This document shows positions 1,602 to 18,127 of a stretch of DNA of 60,996 nucleotides, piece after piece. The notes beneath the pieces were generated by a model that saw only the letters and a program-made list of their open reading frames with translations, did not search any database and was not told where the DNA came from. Each line of letters starts with the position of its first letter. Positions within the stretch are counted from its first letter, which is position 1. Origin of the DNA: a virus; IMG/VR virus record IMGVR_UViG_2788500553_000001, positions 1-60,996 of that record; one strand, 5' to 3'. A program made the position numbers and the translations under genes.

Positions 1602-2918
1602 ATGGCGCTCACCCCACGCGAACAACTCGCGTCGGAACGCCACCGGATCGAGGACGCCGTCGGCGATTTTCTCACCGCCGACGAGGCCAATCGCATCCTT
1701 ACGTTCGCCGACGCACTCGACGACAGCACCGTCAGCGAAAAATACCGCGACCCCGACGGCGAACTCCAAACCCACGCCCCGAAGACGATCAAGAGTTACA
1801 TCAGCGGCATCCGCCTCACCGCCCGCGAGGGCGTCGACCTCACCGACACGACGGCCGATGAGGTCAACGAGCAGATGAACTGCTTTCACGACGACGACGG
1901 CCTCTCGAAGTCGACACTCGGCGTCCGGCAGTCGGCGCTGAAGGCGTTTTACAACCATCACGACGACCTCGGCGTCGACCCTAACGACATCGTCCGCTTC
2001 AAACCCGACAAGTCGAGTAGCGTCGACGAGACGGATATGTTCACGGCCGACGAAGTCGAGGCCCTCCGTCGCGCGGTCGGCGAGACGCAACTCCCGCTCC
2101 GCAACCGCGCGTTTCTCGAACTGTGTATCTTTACCGGCCAGCGCAAACTCGCTCTTCTCACACTCCGCCTCCGCGATGTCGATGTCGAGAACGGCTACAT
2201 CTACCTCAACGACGAGTTCGAGGCCGAAAACGCCGGCCTGAAGGGCGCCCTCGAACGCGGCCGGAAGCGTCCCATGTTCGGCGCGACCAAGTACGTCCGT
2301 GACTGGCTCAACCATCATCCGCACCGCGACGATGACGACGCGTGGCTGTTCATCCCCGACCCGAGCAACGCCCAGTCGAGTACCGGCGACTACTGGTCGG
2401 AGCCGTCCGTCGAACGCCTCTTCTCGCGCGTCGCCGACACGGCCGGCATCGACGACAAGCCGGTCAAGCCCCACAACTTCCGGCACTTCTGCGCGACGGT
2501 CCTGTATCGCGACTACGATGTCGATACCGACACGATCCGGATGCTCCTCGGGCACTCCGATACGAGTCGCACGCTCGAGAAGACGTATAGCCACGTTTTC
2601 GACGAGGACTATGTGCGGAAGGCCGAGGAGGCGATGGGGTTCCGCGATGCCGACGAGGACGACCGAAAGGCGCTCACGCCCGAGACGTGTCCGACGTGCG
2701 GCACGCTGATCGAGCCGGACTGGCGCTCGTGTCCGAACTGTAACGCGGTGTTCGGACCAGAAGAGGAGGTGAAGGTTGCGGCGGATGAAGTCGAGGACGA
2801 GGCAACGGACGCTGCCCTTTCCCGCGATTTGAGCGAAGACGAACGCGAGGGGCTACGAACGCTGCTGTCTCTCGTCGACGATCCGGCCGCGCTCGCGAAG
2901 AAGCTCGACGACGTGTAA
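1602..2918 (+). CDS. int: Tyrosine integrase with C-terminal zinc ribbon
   Basis: Catalytic motifs TGQR, HNFRH, LLGH and YSH; CPTC...CPNC zinc ribbon. Confidence 0.93.
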   Translation: MALTPREQLASERHRIEDAVGDFLTADEANRILTFADALDDSTVSEKYRDPDGELQTHAPKTIKSYISGIRLTAREGVDLTDTTADEVNEQMNCFHDDDGLSKSTLGVRQSALKAFYNHHDDLGVDPNDIVRFKPDKSSSVDETDMFTADEVEALRRAVGETQLPLRNRAFLELCIFTGQRKLALLTLRLRDVDVENGYIYLNDEFEAENAGLKGALERGRKRPMFGATKYVRDWLNHHPHRDDDDAWLFIPDPSNAQSSTGDYWSEPSVERLFSRVADTAGIDDKPVKPHNFRHFCATVLYRDYDVDTDTIRMLLGHSDTSRTLEKTYSHVFDEDYVRKAEEAMGFRDADEDDRKALTPETCPTCGTLIEPDWRSCPNCNAVFGPEEEVKVAADEVEDEATDAALSRDLSEDEREGLRTLLSLVDDPAALAKKLDDV

Positions 2919-7373: not shown

Positions 7374-7716
7374 GTTCGACGACCTCCAGCGTCGCGGGGA
7401 TCGTTTGCTCGCCATTGCTCCGTTCGACAGCGAGTCTGTCGATATGCCGACCGACGTACACCCGCGTCCGGGGCGTTCCTTCACGTTCGATGTGAAGCCG
7501 CTGCTCGTACGGCTTCGTCTGATACCACTCCGCCGTCGGCATCCGCAGGACGATGTTATCCCGGTCGGATGCGACCGCGATTTGAAACTCATGGCCAATG
7601 CCCTGACACGTCACGAACTGCTCTTCTGGCGTCAGATGCCGCTCGACATATCGAATCGGCAAGCGCACGAACGACCGCGACGCATCGATAACGGAGAGTT
7701 CCACGTCAGTCGGCAC
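7351..7716 (-). CDS. Hypothetical protein
   Basis: 121-aa ORF with plausible composition, overlapping both neighbours. Confidence 0.5.
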   Translation of the reverse strand: MPTDVELSVIDASRSFVRLPIRYVERHLTPEEQFVTCQGIGHEFQIAVASDRDNIVLRMPTAEWYQTKPYEQRLHIEREGTPRTRVYVGRHIDRLAVERSNGEQTIPATLEVVEHGILPES

Positions 7717-8125
7717 CGGCAGTCACCTCCGACAGTTTTTGCTGAATTGAACACTTCACTTCATTTTGGTGTTCCTTCTCAGTGTGTCGGAAGTAACTCG
7801 GATAGGGGTGATACTCACCTGTGCCTTGGTCGAACACCAACACCTCGGCTTCGAGGATCGTCTCCGGCAGCAGCGCCGCCATGAACCCCCACGCCCCGGA
7901 CACCTGAAACGGCACGATGTACCGGTCGTTGAGCAGGTCGTCGGCCTGCGCCGCCAACTGCTCTCGATCGAGTTCGTGGTTATTGAAGTTCCAAATCGTC
8001 ATCCCGGCGACGCGGCGCGGACTCAACGCCCGCCGCCTGACGAACGATACCACCTCGTCGGGCGTCGTGCCGTTCTCGACCAGCAGCGCGTCGTCGAGAT
8101 ACGGCGTCCCGAAGCTCTGACTCAT
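7706..8125 (-). CDS. Hypothetical protein
   Basis: Start reassigned to MSQSFG (8125), preceded by GGTGA and the 24-nt repeat. Confidence 0.65.
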   Translation of the reverse strand: MSQSFGTPYLDDALLVENGTTPDEVVSFVRRRALSPRRVAGMTIWNFNNHELDREQLAAQADDLLNDRYIVPFQVSGAWGFMAALLPETILEAEVLVFDQGTGEYHPYPSYFRHTEKEHQNEVKCSIQQKLSEVTAGAD

Positions 8126-8133
8126 CGTCGTTT

Positions 8134-8157
8134 CACCGGCGGTCGGTCGCCACCCAA
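8134..8157 (-). repeat. 24-nt direct repeat, copy following the 59-nt tRNA-like element
   Basis: TTGGGTGGCGACCgACCGCcGGTG; 22/24 identical to 8445-8468. Confidence 0.9.
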
Positions 8158-8215
8158 ACAACCGCGGGGAATTGAACCCCGCCACGGAGAGTAACTCCGT
8201 TACGCCAGCGGTTGC
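8157..8215 (-). ncRNA. 59-nt D-armless tRNA-like element
   Basis: Acceptor GCAACCG/CGGTTGT, linker CTGGCGTA, hairpin ACGGAG-TTACT-CTCCGT, T-arm CGGGG-TTCAATT-CCCCG, discriminator T. Confidence 0.65.
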
Positions 8216-8439
8216 TGCCCGGTTTCGAGGTCTTCTAACTCGATTCGGGCGTCGTCGTTGTCTGTCTCAAGACACGCTGCGAACAGCTCCAACGCTTCTT
8301 GGGGCGAATCACCCCGCACCGGCCTGTCAAGCTCCTCGTTTTCAACTTGCCAGCCCGTTCGCTCTTCATCGGTAATCCGATCGCGGAGCCGTACCTCTCG
8401 CAACGTCAATTCTACCTCGGTTAGCTCGGTTTTCGGCAT
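8200..8439 (-). CDS. Small acidic protein (possible HicB-like fold)
   Basis: MPKTEL...WQVENEELDRPVRGDSPQEAL; G-x-S/T-x-x-EAL resembles the HicB N-terminus; start at 8439. Confidence 0.55.
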   Translation of the reverse strand: MPKTELTEVELTLREVRLRDRITDEERTGWQVENEELDRPVRGDSPQEALELFAACLETDNDDARIELEDLETGQQPLA

Positions 8440-8444
8440 ACTGA

Positions 8445-8468
8445 CACCAGCGGTAGGTCGCCACCCAA
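8445..8468 (-). repeat. 24-nt direct repeat, copy following the 167-nt tRNA-like element
   Basis: TTGGGTGGCGACCtACCGCtGGTG. Confidence 0.9.
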
Positions 8469-8635
8469 GCGGGTGGAGGGACTCGAACCCTCGATTCAGC
8501 CGCCCCCAGTCGAACACGAGAAGCGTCGCGTCCCGGTGGCAGGATTACTCATGGCCTCGACAGCCAACTCCGGAGGAATACGCGGAGCGAATACTGGAGG
8601 ATGGGCCTCGACTGATACCTTCACAGCACACCCGC
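8468..8635 (-). ncRNA. 167-nt tRNA-like RNA with a large insert in place of the anticodon loop
   Basis: Perfect acceptor GCGGGTG/CACCCGC, T-arm GAGGG-TTCGAGT-CCCTC, helix CAGTCG/CGGCTG, variable loop AATC, D-region containing GG. Confidence 0.7.
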
Positions 8636-8654
8636 AAAAATGAGAGTTAGCGCA

Positions 8655-9002
8655 CTACGCCTGATCCGCCACGTCGTCGCGGGCATCGAGGATCGCGCCG
8701 ATGAGACTCGCCTTCGACAGCCGCATCGGGTTCTCGATGCCGAGCCGCTCCGCCTTCGACTCCAGTACGTCGACCGACTGATCGGCGAGGCGGCGACGTA
8801 CGACCATCCGGTCGAGGTCGCCCTCGTTGTCCTCACCCGCTGCCGTCGATGGAGCGGGCGCATCGCCGTCGCGCTCGATCCGCACCGTTCCGTCGTCGTA
8901 GACGACGGTGTACGCGTCGAGCGCGGTCGCGATGTAGTCGAGGTCGTCCTCGGTCGTCGCGGCCCGCGTTTCGCCGTACAGGACCGTCTCGCGCTCGCTC
9001 AT
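8655..9002 (-). CDS. Hypothetical protein with C-terminal Rho-N/SAP-like helical motif
   Basis: LADQSVDVLESKAERLGIENPMRLSKASLIGAI resembles the Rho N-terminal domain. Confidence 0.6.
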   Translation of the reverse strand: MSERETVLYGETRAATTEDDLDYIATALDAYTVVYDDGTVRIERDGDAPAPSTAAGEDNEGDLDRMVVRRRLADQSVDVLESKAERLGIENPMRLSKASLIGAILDARDDVADQA

Positions 9003-9770: not shown

Positions 9771-11609
9771 TTAAAACAGGATGTCCTTCACGAGAGACCG
9801 GGCGCCGGCCAGCGCCTCGTCGGCCGGGCGGTGTTCGAGTTTGTGGAAGTACTGACTCGCGTTGATTGACTGCTGGTCGAAGTCCTCGTCATCCTCGCGG
9901 ATGTAGATGCCGACCACGGGGAAGTCGCACATCGCCAACTGGTCGCGGTACAGCTCCCGGTGATCCGGCTTCCCGTCCGTCAGGACGATGACGAACGGAT
10001 GTCCGCCCTGCTGATCCAACCGCTCACGAGCCAGCGCGAGCGTATCCGACAGCGGCGTGCCGCCGTCGGCCCGGCCGTTGAACATCTTCTCCTTCGCGTC
10101 CGCGACGGACTCGGGGAAGTCCTTTTCCAACCGGGTCAGGTCATCGAACATCGACATCACCGCGGTCTCGACTTCGACCTCCTCCAACGCCATCGCCAGC
10201 GCGCCGGCGGCCTCCTCGGTCGGCGTCATGAGGCTGTTTCCGAAGTTCGACATCGACCCCGACCGGTCGACCGCGATGACCGCCGAGTAATCCTTCGCGT
10301 CGGGCTTGGACGTGTTCTGGAACACGTTGGTCTTGCCCTTCGACACGTTCTTCATCTGCGACGTGTCGACCTTGCCGGTCGACTTCTTCTTCTGTTTTTG
10401 CGACGCACGCTGCTTCTGGAGGCGCTGCTCCAGCTCGCGGGCGAGCGGCTTCTTCATCCGCTTCGCCTCCTCGAACGCGTCCTGATCGAACGTGCCGGGC
10501 GCCGACGTAACGACTTCCATCTCCGGATCGATGTCATCGTCATAGTCGGTCTGGATCACCCGGACCCACTCCTCCGCTGACTTGACCGACGCCTCGGTGC
10601 CAACCTCCTGCCGCTGCCGGTCGACCTCGTCGGAGTAGTCGATCCGGGCGTCCTGCTTGACCGGCGCCATCTCGAAACTGTCACTCAACTCGGCCGGCTC
10701 GCCGCCGTCGCCATCGTCGTCATCGTCCGGTGCGGCCGCCGGGGCTTCCTCGCCTTCCGAGCCGTCGTTCGCCGTTGTATCCGGTGAGATGGCCTCCATG
10801 TCGAACGTCGGCGTCGTCGTGTCGCCCGACTTCACGGTGCCCTTGATGTCGGCGGCGTGGTCGTCGACGAACTCCCGCAGGATCGCCGGCCGCTCCTCGG
10901 CGTCCGTCTCCGCGAGGTACGCCTCGATCGTGTCTTCCAACGCCGGGAGGATCGTATCGACGTACGTCTCTCGATCGTCGTCGGTCAGGAACTCGATGTC
11001 CGCGTCGGCCGGGTCGACGAGCTTCTCGTGCCACCCGAGCGGGTGCTTCTCCTCCCACAGCCGGTAGACGATCGCGTTCAGGATGGAAACCGTCTCCTCG
11101 TCGTTCTGCTTGAGGAGGTTCTCGTTGGTGATCCGGAACTCGTTTTCCATCCCGAACCGGTCGGCCGCCCGCGGCTCGATGAACGCGTCCTCGAACGCGT
11201 CGAACAGTTTCTTGAACAGCGCCTGATCCGGGTCATCGACGACCACCATCTCGGCCTCGACTGCGGGCCAGTCCGTCCACTTCAGGTGACCGATTTCGTG
11301 ATACAAGTCGGTCTCCTGAACCATCAGGTCCCACTCACCCTCGGGGACCGACGTTTCCGTCTGCTCCGGCACATCGGCCCGCACGTTGATGATCTTCCGG
11401 TCGGTGTATCCGAACTCGGTATCCGCGTCCGCGAGGTCAGCGTACGCCCGATCGCCGCTGACCTGAACGAACACCTCCTGATTCGTCGACATAATCGCCC
11501 GCTTCTCGAGGTGTTCGCGACGGGCCTTTGATTCGCGCAGTTTTTCTCGGCCGCCCTCACCGAAGCGGCGCTCGACCGTTTCGACCTTCGTGTTTGTATC
11601 GAGGAACAT
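9771..11609 (-). CDS. CobT-like vWA-domain protein with N-terminal metallopeptidase-like motif
   Basis: MIDAS DRSGS, GGTPL, LTDGKPD; N-terminal HEIGH...FED..IE; start reassigned to MFLDTN. Confidence 0.85.
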   Translation of the reverse strand: MFLDTNTKVETVERRFGEGGREKLRESKARREHLEKRAIMSTNQEVFVQVSGDRAYADLADADTEFGYTDRKIINVRADVPEQTETSVPEGEWDLMVQETDLYHEIGHLKWTDWPAVEAEMVVVDDPDQALFKKLFDAFEDAFIEPRAADRFGMENEFRITNENLLKQNDEETVSILNAIVYRLWEEKHPLGWHEKLVDPADADIEFLTDDDRETYVDTILPALEDTIEAYLAETDAEERPAILREFVDDHAADIKGTVKSGDTTTPTFDMEAISPDTTANDGSEGEEAPAAAPDDDDDGDGGEPAELSDSFEMAPVKQDARIDYSDEVDRQRQEVGTEASVKSAEEWVRVIQTDYDDDIDPEMEVVTSAPGTFDQDAFEEAKRMKKPLARELEQRLQKQRASQKQKKKSTGKVDTSQMKNVSKGKTNVFQNTSKPDAKDYSAVIAVDRSGSMSNFGNSLMTPTEEAAGALAMALEEVEVETAVMSMFDDLTRLEKDFPESVADAKEKMFNGRADGGTPLSDTLALARERLDQQGGHPFVIVLTDGKPDHRELYRDQLAMCDFPVVGIYIREDDEDFDQQSINASQYFHKLEHRPADEALAGARSLVKDILF

Positions 11610-11611
11610 GG

Positions 11612-12787
11612 TTACCAGTTCTGACTGCTGATGTGTTGTTTGATGTCCTGTCGATCCTCCGGGTCGGCGCGGCCGACAAGCACCATCTCGGCCGCCGCCT
11701 CGAAGCTGCCGAGGCGGTCGGCCATCCGCGCCACCTGAACCACGTCGCGGGTACTGATCCACGTCGACGTTTTGCCCATCCGTTTCAGTGACCGAATACC
11801 GGTGACGACGCCGCCATCGTCGCGCAACAGCGTGTCGATCGCCGGGTCGTCTCGATCGAACGGCGTCTCCATCTCGATGACGCGGCGCTCCGCGTCCTCC
11901 GACAGCGGCGGGAGCCGGACCGGGTAGAACCGGCTCGATGTCGCCGCGTCGAGCATCTCGCGGCCACCGTACCCGACCTCGTTGGGGTTCATCGTGGCCG
12001 CGAAGATGAACTCGTCGTGCGGCTCGATGACCTGGTTCGTCTCGGGGATGACAATCTCCGACGAGTCCGCGTCTTCGAGGATTTTGTTCAACATCGTCTG
12101 GACTTTGCCGCTGAGGGCGTTGAACTCGTCCAGAACGAACATATAGCCGTGCCGCAGCGCCGTCGTCAACAGCCCTTCCTCGTACTCGAACCCGCCGTCC
12201 TCCGTCGGCTGATACGTGCCGACGAGGAGGTCGACGAAGTCCGGATCGTCGTTCGCGACGAGCCGAACCATCGGCCGGTTCGTCCGCGCCGCGATGTGTT
12301 CGAGGAGCGCGTCCTTCCCGATGCCGTGCTTGCCGATCAACAGCGTCGAGAAGTCGTCGTCGGCGAGCGCCGCCGTCACGACATCCACGTCCGTCTTCTT
12401 GTGTAGCTCACTCTCGTCGTCCTGACTCATCCGGCGCCGGATGTAGCCGGTGTTCGCGTGCCGGGGGACCTCCGGGTGACCCGTATCCTCTAACACGGGG
12501 AGCGACCCGAACGTCTCCGTCGTCGCCGCACCGGCATCTTCGGCGACCAACTCGTCGCTGTCGCCGTCGAACGCGTCCGCGAGGTGGTCGCTCGGCACGA
12601 CCATGTCGTCGGCGCCGGCGCGCTTCTCCTTCTCCGCGACCATGCTGTCGGCGACGTACTGCTTCGCCGTCGACTCCGCGATGTCGATCTCGGCGACCAA
12701 CTCGTCGACCGCACGATCGTACGGGACTTCGCCGTCGTTTTCGTGGAGTAACCGCTTCAACTGGGCCTCGGATTTCTGGGTTGCCAT
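11612..12787 (-). CDS. MoxR/CbbQ/CobS-like AAA+ ATPase
   Basis: Walker A GKHGIGKD, Walker B VLDEFN, FAATMNP, LDAATSSRF. Confidence 0.88.
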   Translation of the reverse strand: MATQKSEAQLKRLLHENDGEVPYDRAVDELVAEIDIAESTAKQYVADSMVAEKEKRAGADDMVVPSDHLADAFDGDSDELVAEDAGAATTETFGSLPVLEDTGHPEVPRHANTGYIRRRMSQDDESELHKKTDVDVVTAALADDDFSTLLIGKHGIGKDALLEHIAARTNRPMVRLVANDDPDFVDLLVGTYQPTEDGGFEYEEGLLTTALRHGYMFVLDEFNALSGKVQTMLNKILEDADSSEIVIPETNQVIEPHDEFIFAATMNPNEVGYGGREMLDAATSSRFYPVRLPPLSEDAERRVIEMETPFDRDDPAIDTLLRDDGGVVTGIRSLKRMGKTSTWISTRDVVQVARMADRLGSFEAAAEMVLVGRADPEDRQDIKQHISSQNW

Positions 12788-17128: not shown

Positions 17129-17684
17129 CCGCGCTCACCTCCAGCAACGCCTGATTCACTTCGATGAGGCGATGCGCGCGGTGATGCGGCACGTCGACAT
17201 CGCGGTTATACGGCTGGTCGTAGACGACGACCGTGCCGGGGGCATCCCGCTCCGCGACCGCGGCGGGGAGCCGTGGATCGTCGTCGACGTACACATCGTA
17301 ATCGAGGGCGGCTTTCGACCCGTCGACGCGGACGAACTCATCGAACTCGATGCCGTGGTCATCGAGCCACCGACGCCGATACTGTTCAGCGCCTTTGTGG
17401 TCGGGGTACTTCGAGACGATGTCGAGCGTGTCGACCTCCGGATGCGTCTTGATACTGTACGTCTGGAAGCTCGGCGCCGGCTCCATCGGCTCGATCTCCT
17501 GATGCCGGAGCGTCCACGCGTGCCACAGCGCAGACAGGTACCGGGCCTCACCGAACTCCTCTAACCCCCACTCCCACGACTCGATATCGGCGTACGAGTA
17601 GTCGTGGTCGGGGCCGCAGATGAGGTCGAACGCGACGCGACACGTCGCCGCGATCGTCGAGTCGAGGTCGAGGGCCACTCTCAT
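17115..17684 (-). CDS. HAD-superfamily 5'(3')-deoxyribonucleotidase (NT5C-like)
   Basis: Motif I ALDLDST and motif IV YVDDDP. Confidence 0.8.
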   Translation of the reverse strand: MRVALDLDSTIAATCRVAFDLICGPDHDYSYADIESWEWGLEEFGEARYLSALWHAWTLRHQEIEPMEPAPSFQTYSIKTHPEVDTLDIVSKYPDHKGAEQYRRRWLDDHGIEFDEFVRVDGSKAALDYDVYVDDDPRLPAAVAERDAPGTVVVYDQPYNRDVDVPHHRAHRLIEVNQALLEVSADVGA

Positions 17685-18127
17685 CGGTGTTCACCGTAGT
17701 CGCCGACCGTCAGGTCGTCAGGGTCCGTCTCACCACGCTTTACCTGACACGCCGCGGCGATGCCGGCGTACCCCGCCACATCGCGCGGATGGTCGATATC
17801 GTACTCGCCGACCGCGTTACGGCTCATCTTCAGGATCGCCATCATGTACGCGACATCGAGGCCGGTGAGTTCCTCGTGCGACGCGAGGATGCCTTGGCCA
17901 CGGAGATACCACGTCCAACCGTCGGCGATGTGCTCTTGATTTTCGACGGCGTCGCCGTGCGTGTCCCGGTCCGAGTCGACGAGCCGGCCAACGTCTTCCA
18001 ACACGTCGCGCGCCAGTTCGTCGCCGGTCGATCCGGGCGCCGGCTCCGGCTGGCCGTGCGCCACGTCCTCAACGCCAGTCGGGTCGCCATTAGTCATCGC
18101 TCGGCACCCCTGCGAACGACGACTCAT
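17681..18127 (-). CDS. DUF6378-like nucleotide-modification-associated protein
   Basis: DRDTHGDAVEN...IADGWTWYL...DVAYMMAILKMSR...DVAGYA pattern. Confidence 0.7.
   Translation of the reverse strand: MSRRSQGCRAMTNGDPTGVEDVAHGQPEPAPGSTGDELARDVLEDVGRLVDSDRDTHGDAVENQEHIADGWTWYLRGQGILASHEELTGLDVAYMMAILKMSRNAVGEYDIDHPRDVAGYAGIAAACQVKRGETDPDDLTVGDYGEHR

Follow-up and report, generated by a model that had tools for sequence, protein, structure and literature searches.

The window analysed here, a 61-kb provirus record of IMG/VR taken at its full length (63% GC), belongs by its gene content to a haloarchaeal tailed provirus and carries two tRNA-like elements, TLS1 and TLS2, each followed in fixed register by the same 24-nt repeat with an 18-nt motif inside it. 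All coordinates of the two elements refer to the minus strand. The elements combine an acceptor stem with a T-arm and have neither a D-arm nor an anticodon loop; they add a new case to a known class of element, the t-elements. Tentatively, the locus can be read as two copies of a two-part module, in which a t-element, cut on its tRNase Z side, would be joined to an 18-nt leader hairpin. What is unexpected in the module is the conserved motif of 18 nt, together with the fixed register that ties it to t-elements.

Both elements follow one plan, with a T-arm, a 7-nt acceptor strand, one base, a T and then the 18-nt motif. The 24-nt repeat has only two matches in the window even when up to 3 mismatches are allowed, and none in 100 shuffled sequences, which bears out the claim of an earlier sequence-only reading that tandem tRNA-like elements stand in register with a shared repeat. 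That reading had also described the elements as tRNA-like with compensatory stems, and the repeat as leading to a ribosome-binding site and ATG. Specifically, the T-arms are canonical and have closing pairs of the G53/C61 type, their stems differ by paired changes between the copies and among homologues, and each repeat ends in a Shine-Dalgarno-like (SD-like) GGTG that is followed by the start codon of gene B (8439) or gene C (8125). The SD-like position of the first copy is likewise GGTG or GGAG in three related loci (L397, L395 and L049; L-numbers denote loci on uncultured viral contigs obtained from motif scans).

The T-arm form that marks a t-element, a 5-bp stem closed by G-C with a 7-nt loop of the TTCRANT type, is present in both window copies and in nine relatives. 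ARAGORN predicted no tRNA gene in the window, the tRNA model RF00005 had no match there, and Rfam returned nothing at its gathering threshold. The nearest Rfam model was mascRNA-menRNA (RF01684), which scored 25.1 bits (E=0.015) for TLS2 (8158-8215) and 18.1 bits for the short form of TLS1 (8469-8503), both below the gathering threshold of 42.5 bits. T-arm-like hairpins are not rare by themselves, with 4 in the window versus 1.9 in shuffles. The significance of the elements comes instead from their fixed register with the repeat and from its recurrence in further contigs, rather than from fold energy or the number of T-arms. The idea that tRNA-like folds serve as general punctuation of the provirus was discarded, since only TLS1 and TLS2 have an acceptor partner together with the motif.

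A T-arm of 5 bp and 7 nt that ends exactly 9 nt before the motif occurs twice in the window and at L049, L051, L135, L290, L395, L396, L397, L399 and L400/L401. This amounts to 11 fully readable copies on about nine non-identical contigs, the window's two included. The records behind two of these loci (L049 and L051) have genes in common with the window, and L395-L401 are seven metagenome loci retrieved with a search pattern in which T-loop and register were held constant, among which L400 and L401 give one reading and L398 ends at a contig edge. Contigs with t-elements are mid- or high-GC, lack strong SD sites and have very short leaders. In a gap-free alignment of the 11 copies (A1), the T-stem is 100% paired across seven different stems, with three covarying pairs, and the two G-C pairs beside the loop (G53/C61-type closing) are invariant, as in true tRNAs. 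The covariation score of 0.469, compared with 0.136 in shuffles, was reached by none of 500 shuffles. The acceptor stems of the relatives have 6-7 pairs, which by itself is near chance for a 30-nt search space, and they change in a compensatory manner from A-T to G-C at pair 2-71 (L049 versus L400) and from G.T to C-G at pair 5-68 (L051 versus L135). Covariation in homologues, whose absence the sequence-only reading had named, along with a lack of processed ends, as what would speak against it, is therefore present in the T-stem as well as at these two acceptor pairs.

The family also helps to place the 5' end of TLS1, which is ambiguous because there are two candidate acceptor partners, a perfect one at 8635-8629 and a nearer one at 8503-8497. 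In the relatives, 8-31 nt separate the acceptor 5' strand from the T-arm, so the short form of TLS1 is favoured, or else the form with a 136-nt insert is atypical. The RNA end once predicted at 8635 holds only for this atypical long-range form. At the other end of the element, T directly precedes the motif in 11 of 11 t-element copies versus 13 of 97 other listed copies, which points to a constraint tied to the junction or to a putative cut site.

These patterns bear on the alternative that the locus is a DNA-level feature, be it attachment-site (att) leftovers of integration into a tRNA gene, viral tRNA genes in decay or a recombination site at the borders of gene cassettes. The window does encode a tyrosine integrase, proviruses often carry 3' parts of tRNA genes, and small unrelated open reading frames (ORFs) follow the motif. 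However, the elements lie 5-6 kb inside the provirus in intergenic positions, 310 nt apart and unlike in stem sequence, and so are not att duplicates, and the window has no tRNA gene to mark an att site. Moreover, the stems stay paired by compensatory change while the linkers drift, which argues for selection on structure; the motif is strand-specific relative to genes (158 versus 32 copies, see below), and a BLAST comparison of six whole motif-carrying records found no shared recombinase. A DNA-level origin is thus highly improbable. The same holds for the suggestion, made in the sequence-only reading, that the elements are released as small decoys, here soaking up host tRNA-targeting defence nucleases. 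An acceptor stem with a T-arm is what many tRNA enzymes read, and phage tRNAs are known to counter anticodon nucleases, but the elements offer no anticodon loop (the hairpin loop of TLS2 has 5 nt, and the L290 element has a tetraloop), in most members the upstream ORF extends through their 5' part, there are only two copies, and decoys would leave the strict register with the motif unexplained. Nothing in the analysis supports this suggestion, and it can hardly be right.

Read as a module of t-element and leader hairpin, the locus suggests where a cut would fall. The longest upstream ORF ends 5-16 nt into the element in TLS2, the short form of TLS1, L051, L135, L290 and L396, and within 4 nt of the element's 5' end in L395 and L397. 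Because the ORF ends inside the element, a cut by RNase P would strip the upstream stop codon in most members, and a 3' cut by tRNase Z is favoured because the upstream message then stays intact and ends in the tRNA-like fold. In the mechanism proposed here, host tRNase Z would cut after the discriminator base, leaving the upstream message with a stable tRNA-like fold at its end and a downstream RNA that would start with a U and the motif hairpin, the motif being one base from the 5' end. The hairpin would then act as an autonomous cis-acting leader module, which most likely sets the stability of the RNA starting just after it, the access of ribosomes to that RNA, or both; our best guess is a 5'-proximal module that protects the processed end, governs ribosome access, or both. 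In bacterial phages, the same hairpin would reach its place via a promoter, or via a hairpin and A/U-rich linker, in place of a t-element, and such a linker after a hairpin could serve host endonucleases in a similar way.

The closest precedent comes from the same host group. In Haloferax volcanii, t-elements (Hoelzle 2008, 2012, as cited in PMC4326828) are tRNA-like folds within longer transcripts that, by the account in that source, are cut in vivo by RNase P and tRNase Z. One of them is described there as the site where tRNase Z, cutting after the discriminator, makes the 5' end of the downstream 5S ribosomal RNA (rRNA), and processing in vivo beside a CRISPR RNA is described as well (PMC4326828). 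Unlike the Haloferax cases, the present elements lie between provirus protein genes, overlap the upstream stop codon and keep a fixed register with an 18-nt hairpin, and their cleavage is predicted. As such, the proposal of the sequence-only reading that host tRNA-processing enzymes act at this locus survives on the tRNase Z side, where anatomy and precedent favour it, and is given up as regards a clean excision of the elements, in which the RNase P cut would remove a stop codon.

More distant systems show the same principle. In the t-elements of plant mitochondria and the tRNA punctuation of animal mitochondria, tRNA or tRNA-like folds define mRNA ends in polycistronic transcripts, and the cuts can leave messages without a stop codon. 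To our knowledge, these systems differ from the present one in being organellar, in having numerous sites in each genome and in lacking a conserved leader downstream of the cut. The MALAT1 mascRNA and MEN-beta RNAs (RF01684) are also minihelices of an acceptor stem and a T-arm that are processed by RNase P and RNase Z; they are vertebrate nuclear RNAs, and with scores below threshold the likeness is one of shape only. If the predicted cuts occur, this would be an archaeal virus whose protein-coding transcripts are punctuated in tRNA fashion, and viruses would be borrowing host tRNA enzymes to obtain defined message ends.

The second part of the module, the motif, has the consensus G1 G2 G3 U4 N5 G6 Y7 G8 A9 C10 C11 U12 A13 C14 C15 R16 C17 N18, and its counts are lower bounds from scans that each freed chosen positions. 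A first scan of viral contigs with a 17-nt core gave 57 loci, mostly on low- or mid-GC phage contigs, and after removal of duplicates there are at least 210 distinct copies in uncultured bacterial and archaeal viruses of 30-72% GC. An SD-like site and a start codon follow within 40 nt in 158 of the 210 listed copies (~75%) in the sense direction, versus 32 in the antisense control. Among the listed copies, the SD-like site begins a median of 5 nt past motif position 17 and the start codon a median of 19 nt past it (interquartile range 16-21), and the 5 bases ahead of the motif are A/U-rich and G/C-poor. In low- and mid-GC phages of the bacterial type, the tRNA-like element is replaced by a sigma-70-type promoter or by a hairpin with an A/U-rich linker, after which the core stands between genes, shortly before a Shine-Dalgarno sequence and ATG; many of these phages have the motif 13-15 nt after a -10 box. 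Judged by strand, position and base pairing, the motif is a structured element that acts in the sense orientation of the RNA and lies immediately ahead of the functional start of whatever RNA follows. The identical leaders that the sequence-only reading ascribed to the virus are thus upheld for the two units of the window, which share the motif, but they are not private to this virus, as the motif is found at no fewer than 210 loci and also without a tRNA-like element.

Copy numbers are low, with one copy in each of three phages of 163-197 kb (two complete, one estimated to be 84% complete) and between two and four in each of six smaller records, of which the window is one. The downstream ORFs (n=104) are unrelated, with a largest cluster of 30 and most of them singletons, which excludes one common downstream gene family; those identified include ThyX, an amidoligase and DUF7389. 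In a few places the motif precedes something other than a protein gene. At L015 (11973-11990, minus strand) it lies between tRNA-Asn and tRNA-Trp and ends 4-5 nt before tRNA-Trp, at L041 (530-546, plus strand) it ends 4-5 nt before a tRNA-Asn gene, and in the L007 class it comes after a stop codon, ~30 nt ahead of an intrinsic terminator.

Several loci show further peculiarities. Large gut- or rumen-type phages (L280-L294, L092, L101 and others) have a single motif copy per genome, and in this group a promoter is followed by a 5'-terminal hairpin whose stem sequence varies among phages, an A-rich linker of 10-16 nt, the motif and then one common 136-aa gene of unknown function, the cluster of 30. 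L048 (11631-11666, plus strand) has two motif copies in tandem, 2 nt apart, of which the second carries a one-base deletion (ACGCC for ACCGCC) that recurs independently in L014 and L018. L018, a complete 57.6-kb phage, also carries a type-P5 twister ribozyme (9947-10005, plus strand; 51.8 bits, E=2e-8) just before an HNH endonuclease gene and ~440 nt upstream of the first of its four motif copies.

Covariation gives the motif a fold. When the canonical C7/G16 was excluded from the scan, 35 of the 38 matches listed had U7/A16, all in the usual leader context. With position 5 set to C and all pyrimidine/purine combinations allowed at pair 7-16, the matches listed comprised 52 U-A, 16 C-G, 3 U-G and 1 C-A (Fisher p = 4e-12), and the four odd copies were those without leader context. 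Pair 5-18 covaries perfectly in the t-element set (GC 5, AU 4, GU 2) and partially in the whole set (G-C 32, G-U 7, U-A 18, with A5 and C5 less clean). Position 19 is a purine in 91% of copies and can pair with U4. U4 and A13 do not vary in true context, G2, G3, C10 and C11 never vary, and position 12 is U in 88% of copies. These data support a predicted hairpin of 4-5 bp, in which positions 4/5-8 pair with 15-18/19, with a near-invariant ACCUAC loop and an invariant GGGU 5' flank. Its predicted stability is modest; C-G forms reach -5 to -8 kcal/mol, U-A forms about -2. The flank could in addition pair with ACCU at positions 9-12, giving an alternative hairpin or a very small pseudoknot, for which GGG/CCU covariation is uninformative since the positions never vary.

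Other pairings fared worse. A hairpin of GGUGG with CNACC around a CGAC loop was rejected because all four bases occur freely at position 5, whereas U persists at position 12. Pairing to 16S rRNA (3' end, 530, 790 and 1400 regions), 5S rRNA, tRNA 3' ends or a retroviral-type primer site, judged by eye, extends over 5-8 nt only, and these likenesses were rejected because they are lost once positions 5, 7 and 16 vary. The reverse complement resembles the ops element, on the wrong strand and in a form that the U-A variant breaks.

The alternative helix underlies a second account of the motif, namely that it marks or performs an RNA cut, either as the core of an undescribed small self-cleaving RNA or as a minimal RNase P substrate. 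For RNase P, GGGU (positions 1-4) would form a helix with ACCU (positions 9-12), one of its pairs being a G1.U12 wobble, and the ACC-R that follows would resemble the RCCA end of a tRNA. The motif does always adjoin an expected RNA end. Copies coupled to a t-element lie 1 nt beyond the tRNase Z site, those at tRNA-Trp and tRNA-Asn precede the RNase P site by 4-5 nt, and bacterial phages have the motif downstream of A/U-rich linkers. The preference for U rather than C at position 12 in 88% of copies would also fit, since HDV-type (hepatitis delta virus-type) and group I cleavage sites are known to prefer a G.U at position 1; the twister ribozyme of L018 lies 440 nt upstream, and RNase P, being universal, would explain conservation in both domains. 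Against this, the GGGU/ACCU helix, whose bases G2, G3, C10 and C11 never vary, would compete with the only pairing that covariation proves (5-8 with 15-18), and 18 nt is far below the size of any known natural ribozyme. An HDV-like or theta ribozyme fold was excluded, as a complementary 3' strand of P1 is absent downstream of the motif in the window and its relatives, and no Rfam ribozyme model matches the motif. Theta ribozymes, which are minimal HDV-like ribozymes beside phage tRNAs, do share a conserved element that starts with G within ~1 nt of a tRNA-shaped 3' end, which they are thought to make (PMC10879173). In contrast to them, the motif has 18 nt, no nested double pseudoknot, mostly no tRNA beside it and no HDV-type match in Rfam. 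All in all, a cutting role for the motif is unlikely.

Nearly as doubtful, if a little less so, is a third account, in which the motif is an operator or sensor through which a protein or small ligand, common to both domains or carried by the viruses, switches translation of the next gene, the tRNA-like elements being one of several interchangeable upstream structures. A near-invariant loop and 5' flank on a covarying stem make a typical recognition surface, the motif ends a median of 5 nt before the SD-like site, and genomes have one to four copies before unrelated genes. However, the BLAST comparison of six whole records revealed no shared candidate reader protein, terminase aside, and an all-against-all BLAST of ORFs from 59 loci yielded no shared trans-acting protein, only common phage genes; SSB, small and large terminase and SNF2 helicase were the genes common in these comparisons. 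Furthermore, translational control would be senseless before tRNA genes, the 2-nt register with the t-element and the invariant T would go unexplained, and we know of no natural aptamer as small as 18 nt.

Less probable again is a put- or nut-like leader RNA that lets the polymerase read through terminators, with the tRNA-like elements as unrelated processing sites. One to four copies per genome, a place 13-15 nt after -10 boxes in many phages, the intrinsic terminator ~30 nt after the motif in the L007 class and the T5 run that precedes TLS1 speak for such a role. Nonetheless, termination differs between bacteria and archaea, tight spacing to the SD site and to the first base of tRNAs would be unneeded, and the antitermination RNAs known to us are much larger and lineage-specific.

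Searches for earlier descriptions of the motif returned little. No family of Rfam 15 matched at E<=10 (window stretch) or E<=1 (L018/L046), E-values that so short a motif could escape. The motif core strings were not found in the text of the 8.4 million papers searched, nor was a reader or mechanism for the motif described there. Among cultured phages, variants occurred only in two unannotated human-faecal phage records, besides chance matches inside tail genes, and a genome scan with the long repeat gave five bacterial matches of doubtful meaning and no haloarchaeal one. The conserved motif, its covariation and its fixed place before a functional RNA start imply a reader or mechanism common to both domains. 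It is possible, with less confidence than for the module itself, that the motif represents a new structured viral RNA class common to bacterial and archaeal viruses. Its near-invariant sequence may be maintained because a shared component (RNase P, the ribosome or RNA polymerase) reads it, or because it belongs to a tiny cleaving or nuclease-blocking fold; haloarchaeal viruses, for their part, would have linked the motif to t-elements, leaving it to host tRNA enzymes to place it at an RNA end. T4-type promoter-early stem-loop cassettes and synthetic insulators such as RiboJ offer a parallel for a portable leader before unrelated genes, in which processing and a hairpin standardise the 5' end by the ribosome-binding site. 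Those leaders are lineage-specific or man-made, whereas the present motif keeps its sequence across bacterial and archaeal viruses, and it could be put to use in either domain as a compact leader for expressing genes.

Several observations weigh against the reading as a module of t-element and leader hairpin. TLS1 has no clean short acceptor stem, as it reaches 6 of 7 pairs, or 7 of 7 only over the 136-nt insert, and chance alone would give a 6/7 match within 30 nt in about 1 in 3 cases, so that single acceptor stems are weak evidence alone. The folding energies are unremarkable (z = +0.47 and -2.3), and the T5 run at 8640-8636 could end transcription ahead of TLS1. As to the motif, a near-invariant sequence across 30-72% GC exceeds what a plain stabilising hairpin needs, which implies some reader, and because it also precedes tRNA genes (L015, L041) and the terminator of the L007 class, a purely translational role is not general.

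Table 1 Features of the two modules and neighbouring genes in the window
Feature	Position	Strand	Details
Gene A	8655-9002	-	115 aa; upstream of TLS1; ORF list; weak Rho_N match
T5 run	8636-8640	-	directly 3' of gene A, directly 5' of long-form TLS1 strand; from sequence
TLS1 acceptor 5' strand, long form	8629-8635	-	7/7 pairs; 136-nt insert; used in minimum free energy fold
Candidate 18-aa ORF	8496-8552	-	42 aa from GTG at 8624; stop 8498-8496 overlaps short-form TLS1 acceptor 5' strand; ORF list
TLS1 acceptor 5' strand, short form	8497-8503	-	6/7 pairs; 4-nt linker
TLS1 T-arm	8476-8492	-	5-bp stem GAGGG/CCCTC; 7-nt loop TTCGAGT
TLS1 acceptor 3' strand	8469-8475	-	
TLS1 discriminator; invariant T	8468; 8467	-	
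24-nt repeat, copy 1	8445-8468	-	repeat search
18-nt motif, copy 1	8449-8466	-	hairpin 8462-8459 with 8452-8449; loop ACCTAC
SD-like GGTG, copy 1	8445-8448	-	last four bases of 24-nt repeat copy 1; 5 nt before ATG
Gene B	8200-8439	-	79 aa; stop codon inside TLS2; ORF list
TLS2, overall	8158-8215	-	acceptor 7 bp, 8-nt linker, 6-bp hairpin, T-arm
TLS2 acceptor 5' strand	8215-8209	-	
TLS2 linker	after 8209	-	8 nt; with gene B stop codon 8202-8200
TLS2 hairpin	8200-8184	-	6 bp; 5-nt loop
TLS2 T-arm	8165-8181	-	5-bp stem CGGGG/CCCCG; loop TTCAATT
TLS2 acceptor 3' strand	8158-8164	-	7/7 pairs including one G.U
TLS2 discriminator; invariant T	8157; 8156	-	
24-nt repeat, copy 2	8134-8157	-	repeat search
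18-nt motif, copy 2	8138-8155	-	position 12 = G
SD-like GGTG, copy 2	8134-8137	-	8 nt before ATG
Gene C	7706-8125	-	139 aa; phrog_27711 (unknown function); family search
Tyrosine integrase	1602-2918		

On the minus strand, gene A is followed by a 215-nt spacer, gene B and gene C (Table 1). Family searches gave no match for gene B, no relatives of gene C were found in viral contigs, and the region had no match among cultured phages. The T5 run is possibly a terminator signal of the archaeal type; if so, it would speak against co-transcription of genes A and B. The candidate 18-aa ORF in the spacer mirrors the layout of the relatives, in which a stop codon lies inside the element.

The assignment to haloarchaeal tailed viruses reflects genes for a family B DNA polymerase (PolB), an RFC-like clamp loader, a RadA/Rad51-type recombinase, a large terminase and a portal; the large terminase (TerL) most resembles its counterparts in Halorubrum phage Hardycor1 (39%) and Haloferax tailed virus 1 (HFTV1). 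Positions 1-2000 of the window, which adjoin the integrase gene, have 71% GC versus ~63% elsewhere and are probably flanking host DNA together with the left border of the provirus; these positions yielded no tRNA gene. Further along, a MoxR-type AAA_5 ATPase (11612-12787, minus strand) is followed by a 663-aa VWA-domain protein (9771-11762, phrog_23795), and the two look like a MoxR-VWA pair within the provirus. The weak Ro60-vWA likeness of the 663-aa protein probably reflects the shared VWA fold only. The window also encodes a DUF6378 protein (17681-18127, minus strand) with no 18-nt motif at its gene; in a separate group of contigs (L005-L007, L024, L029, L031 and L055), homologues of this protein are encoded ~135 nt downstream of the motif.

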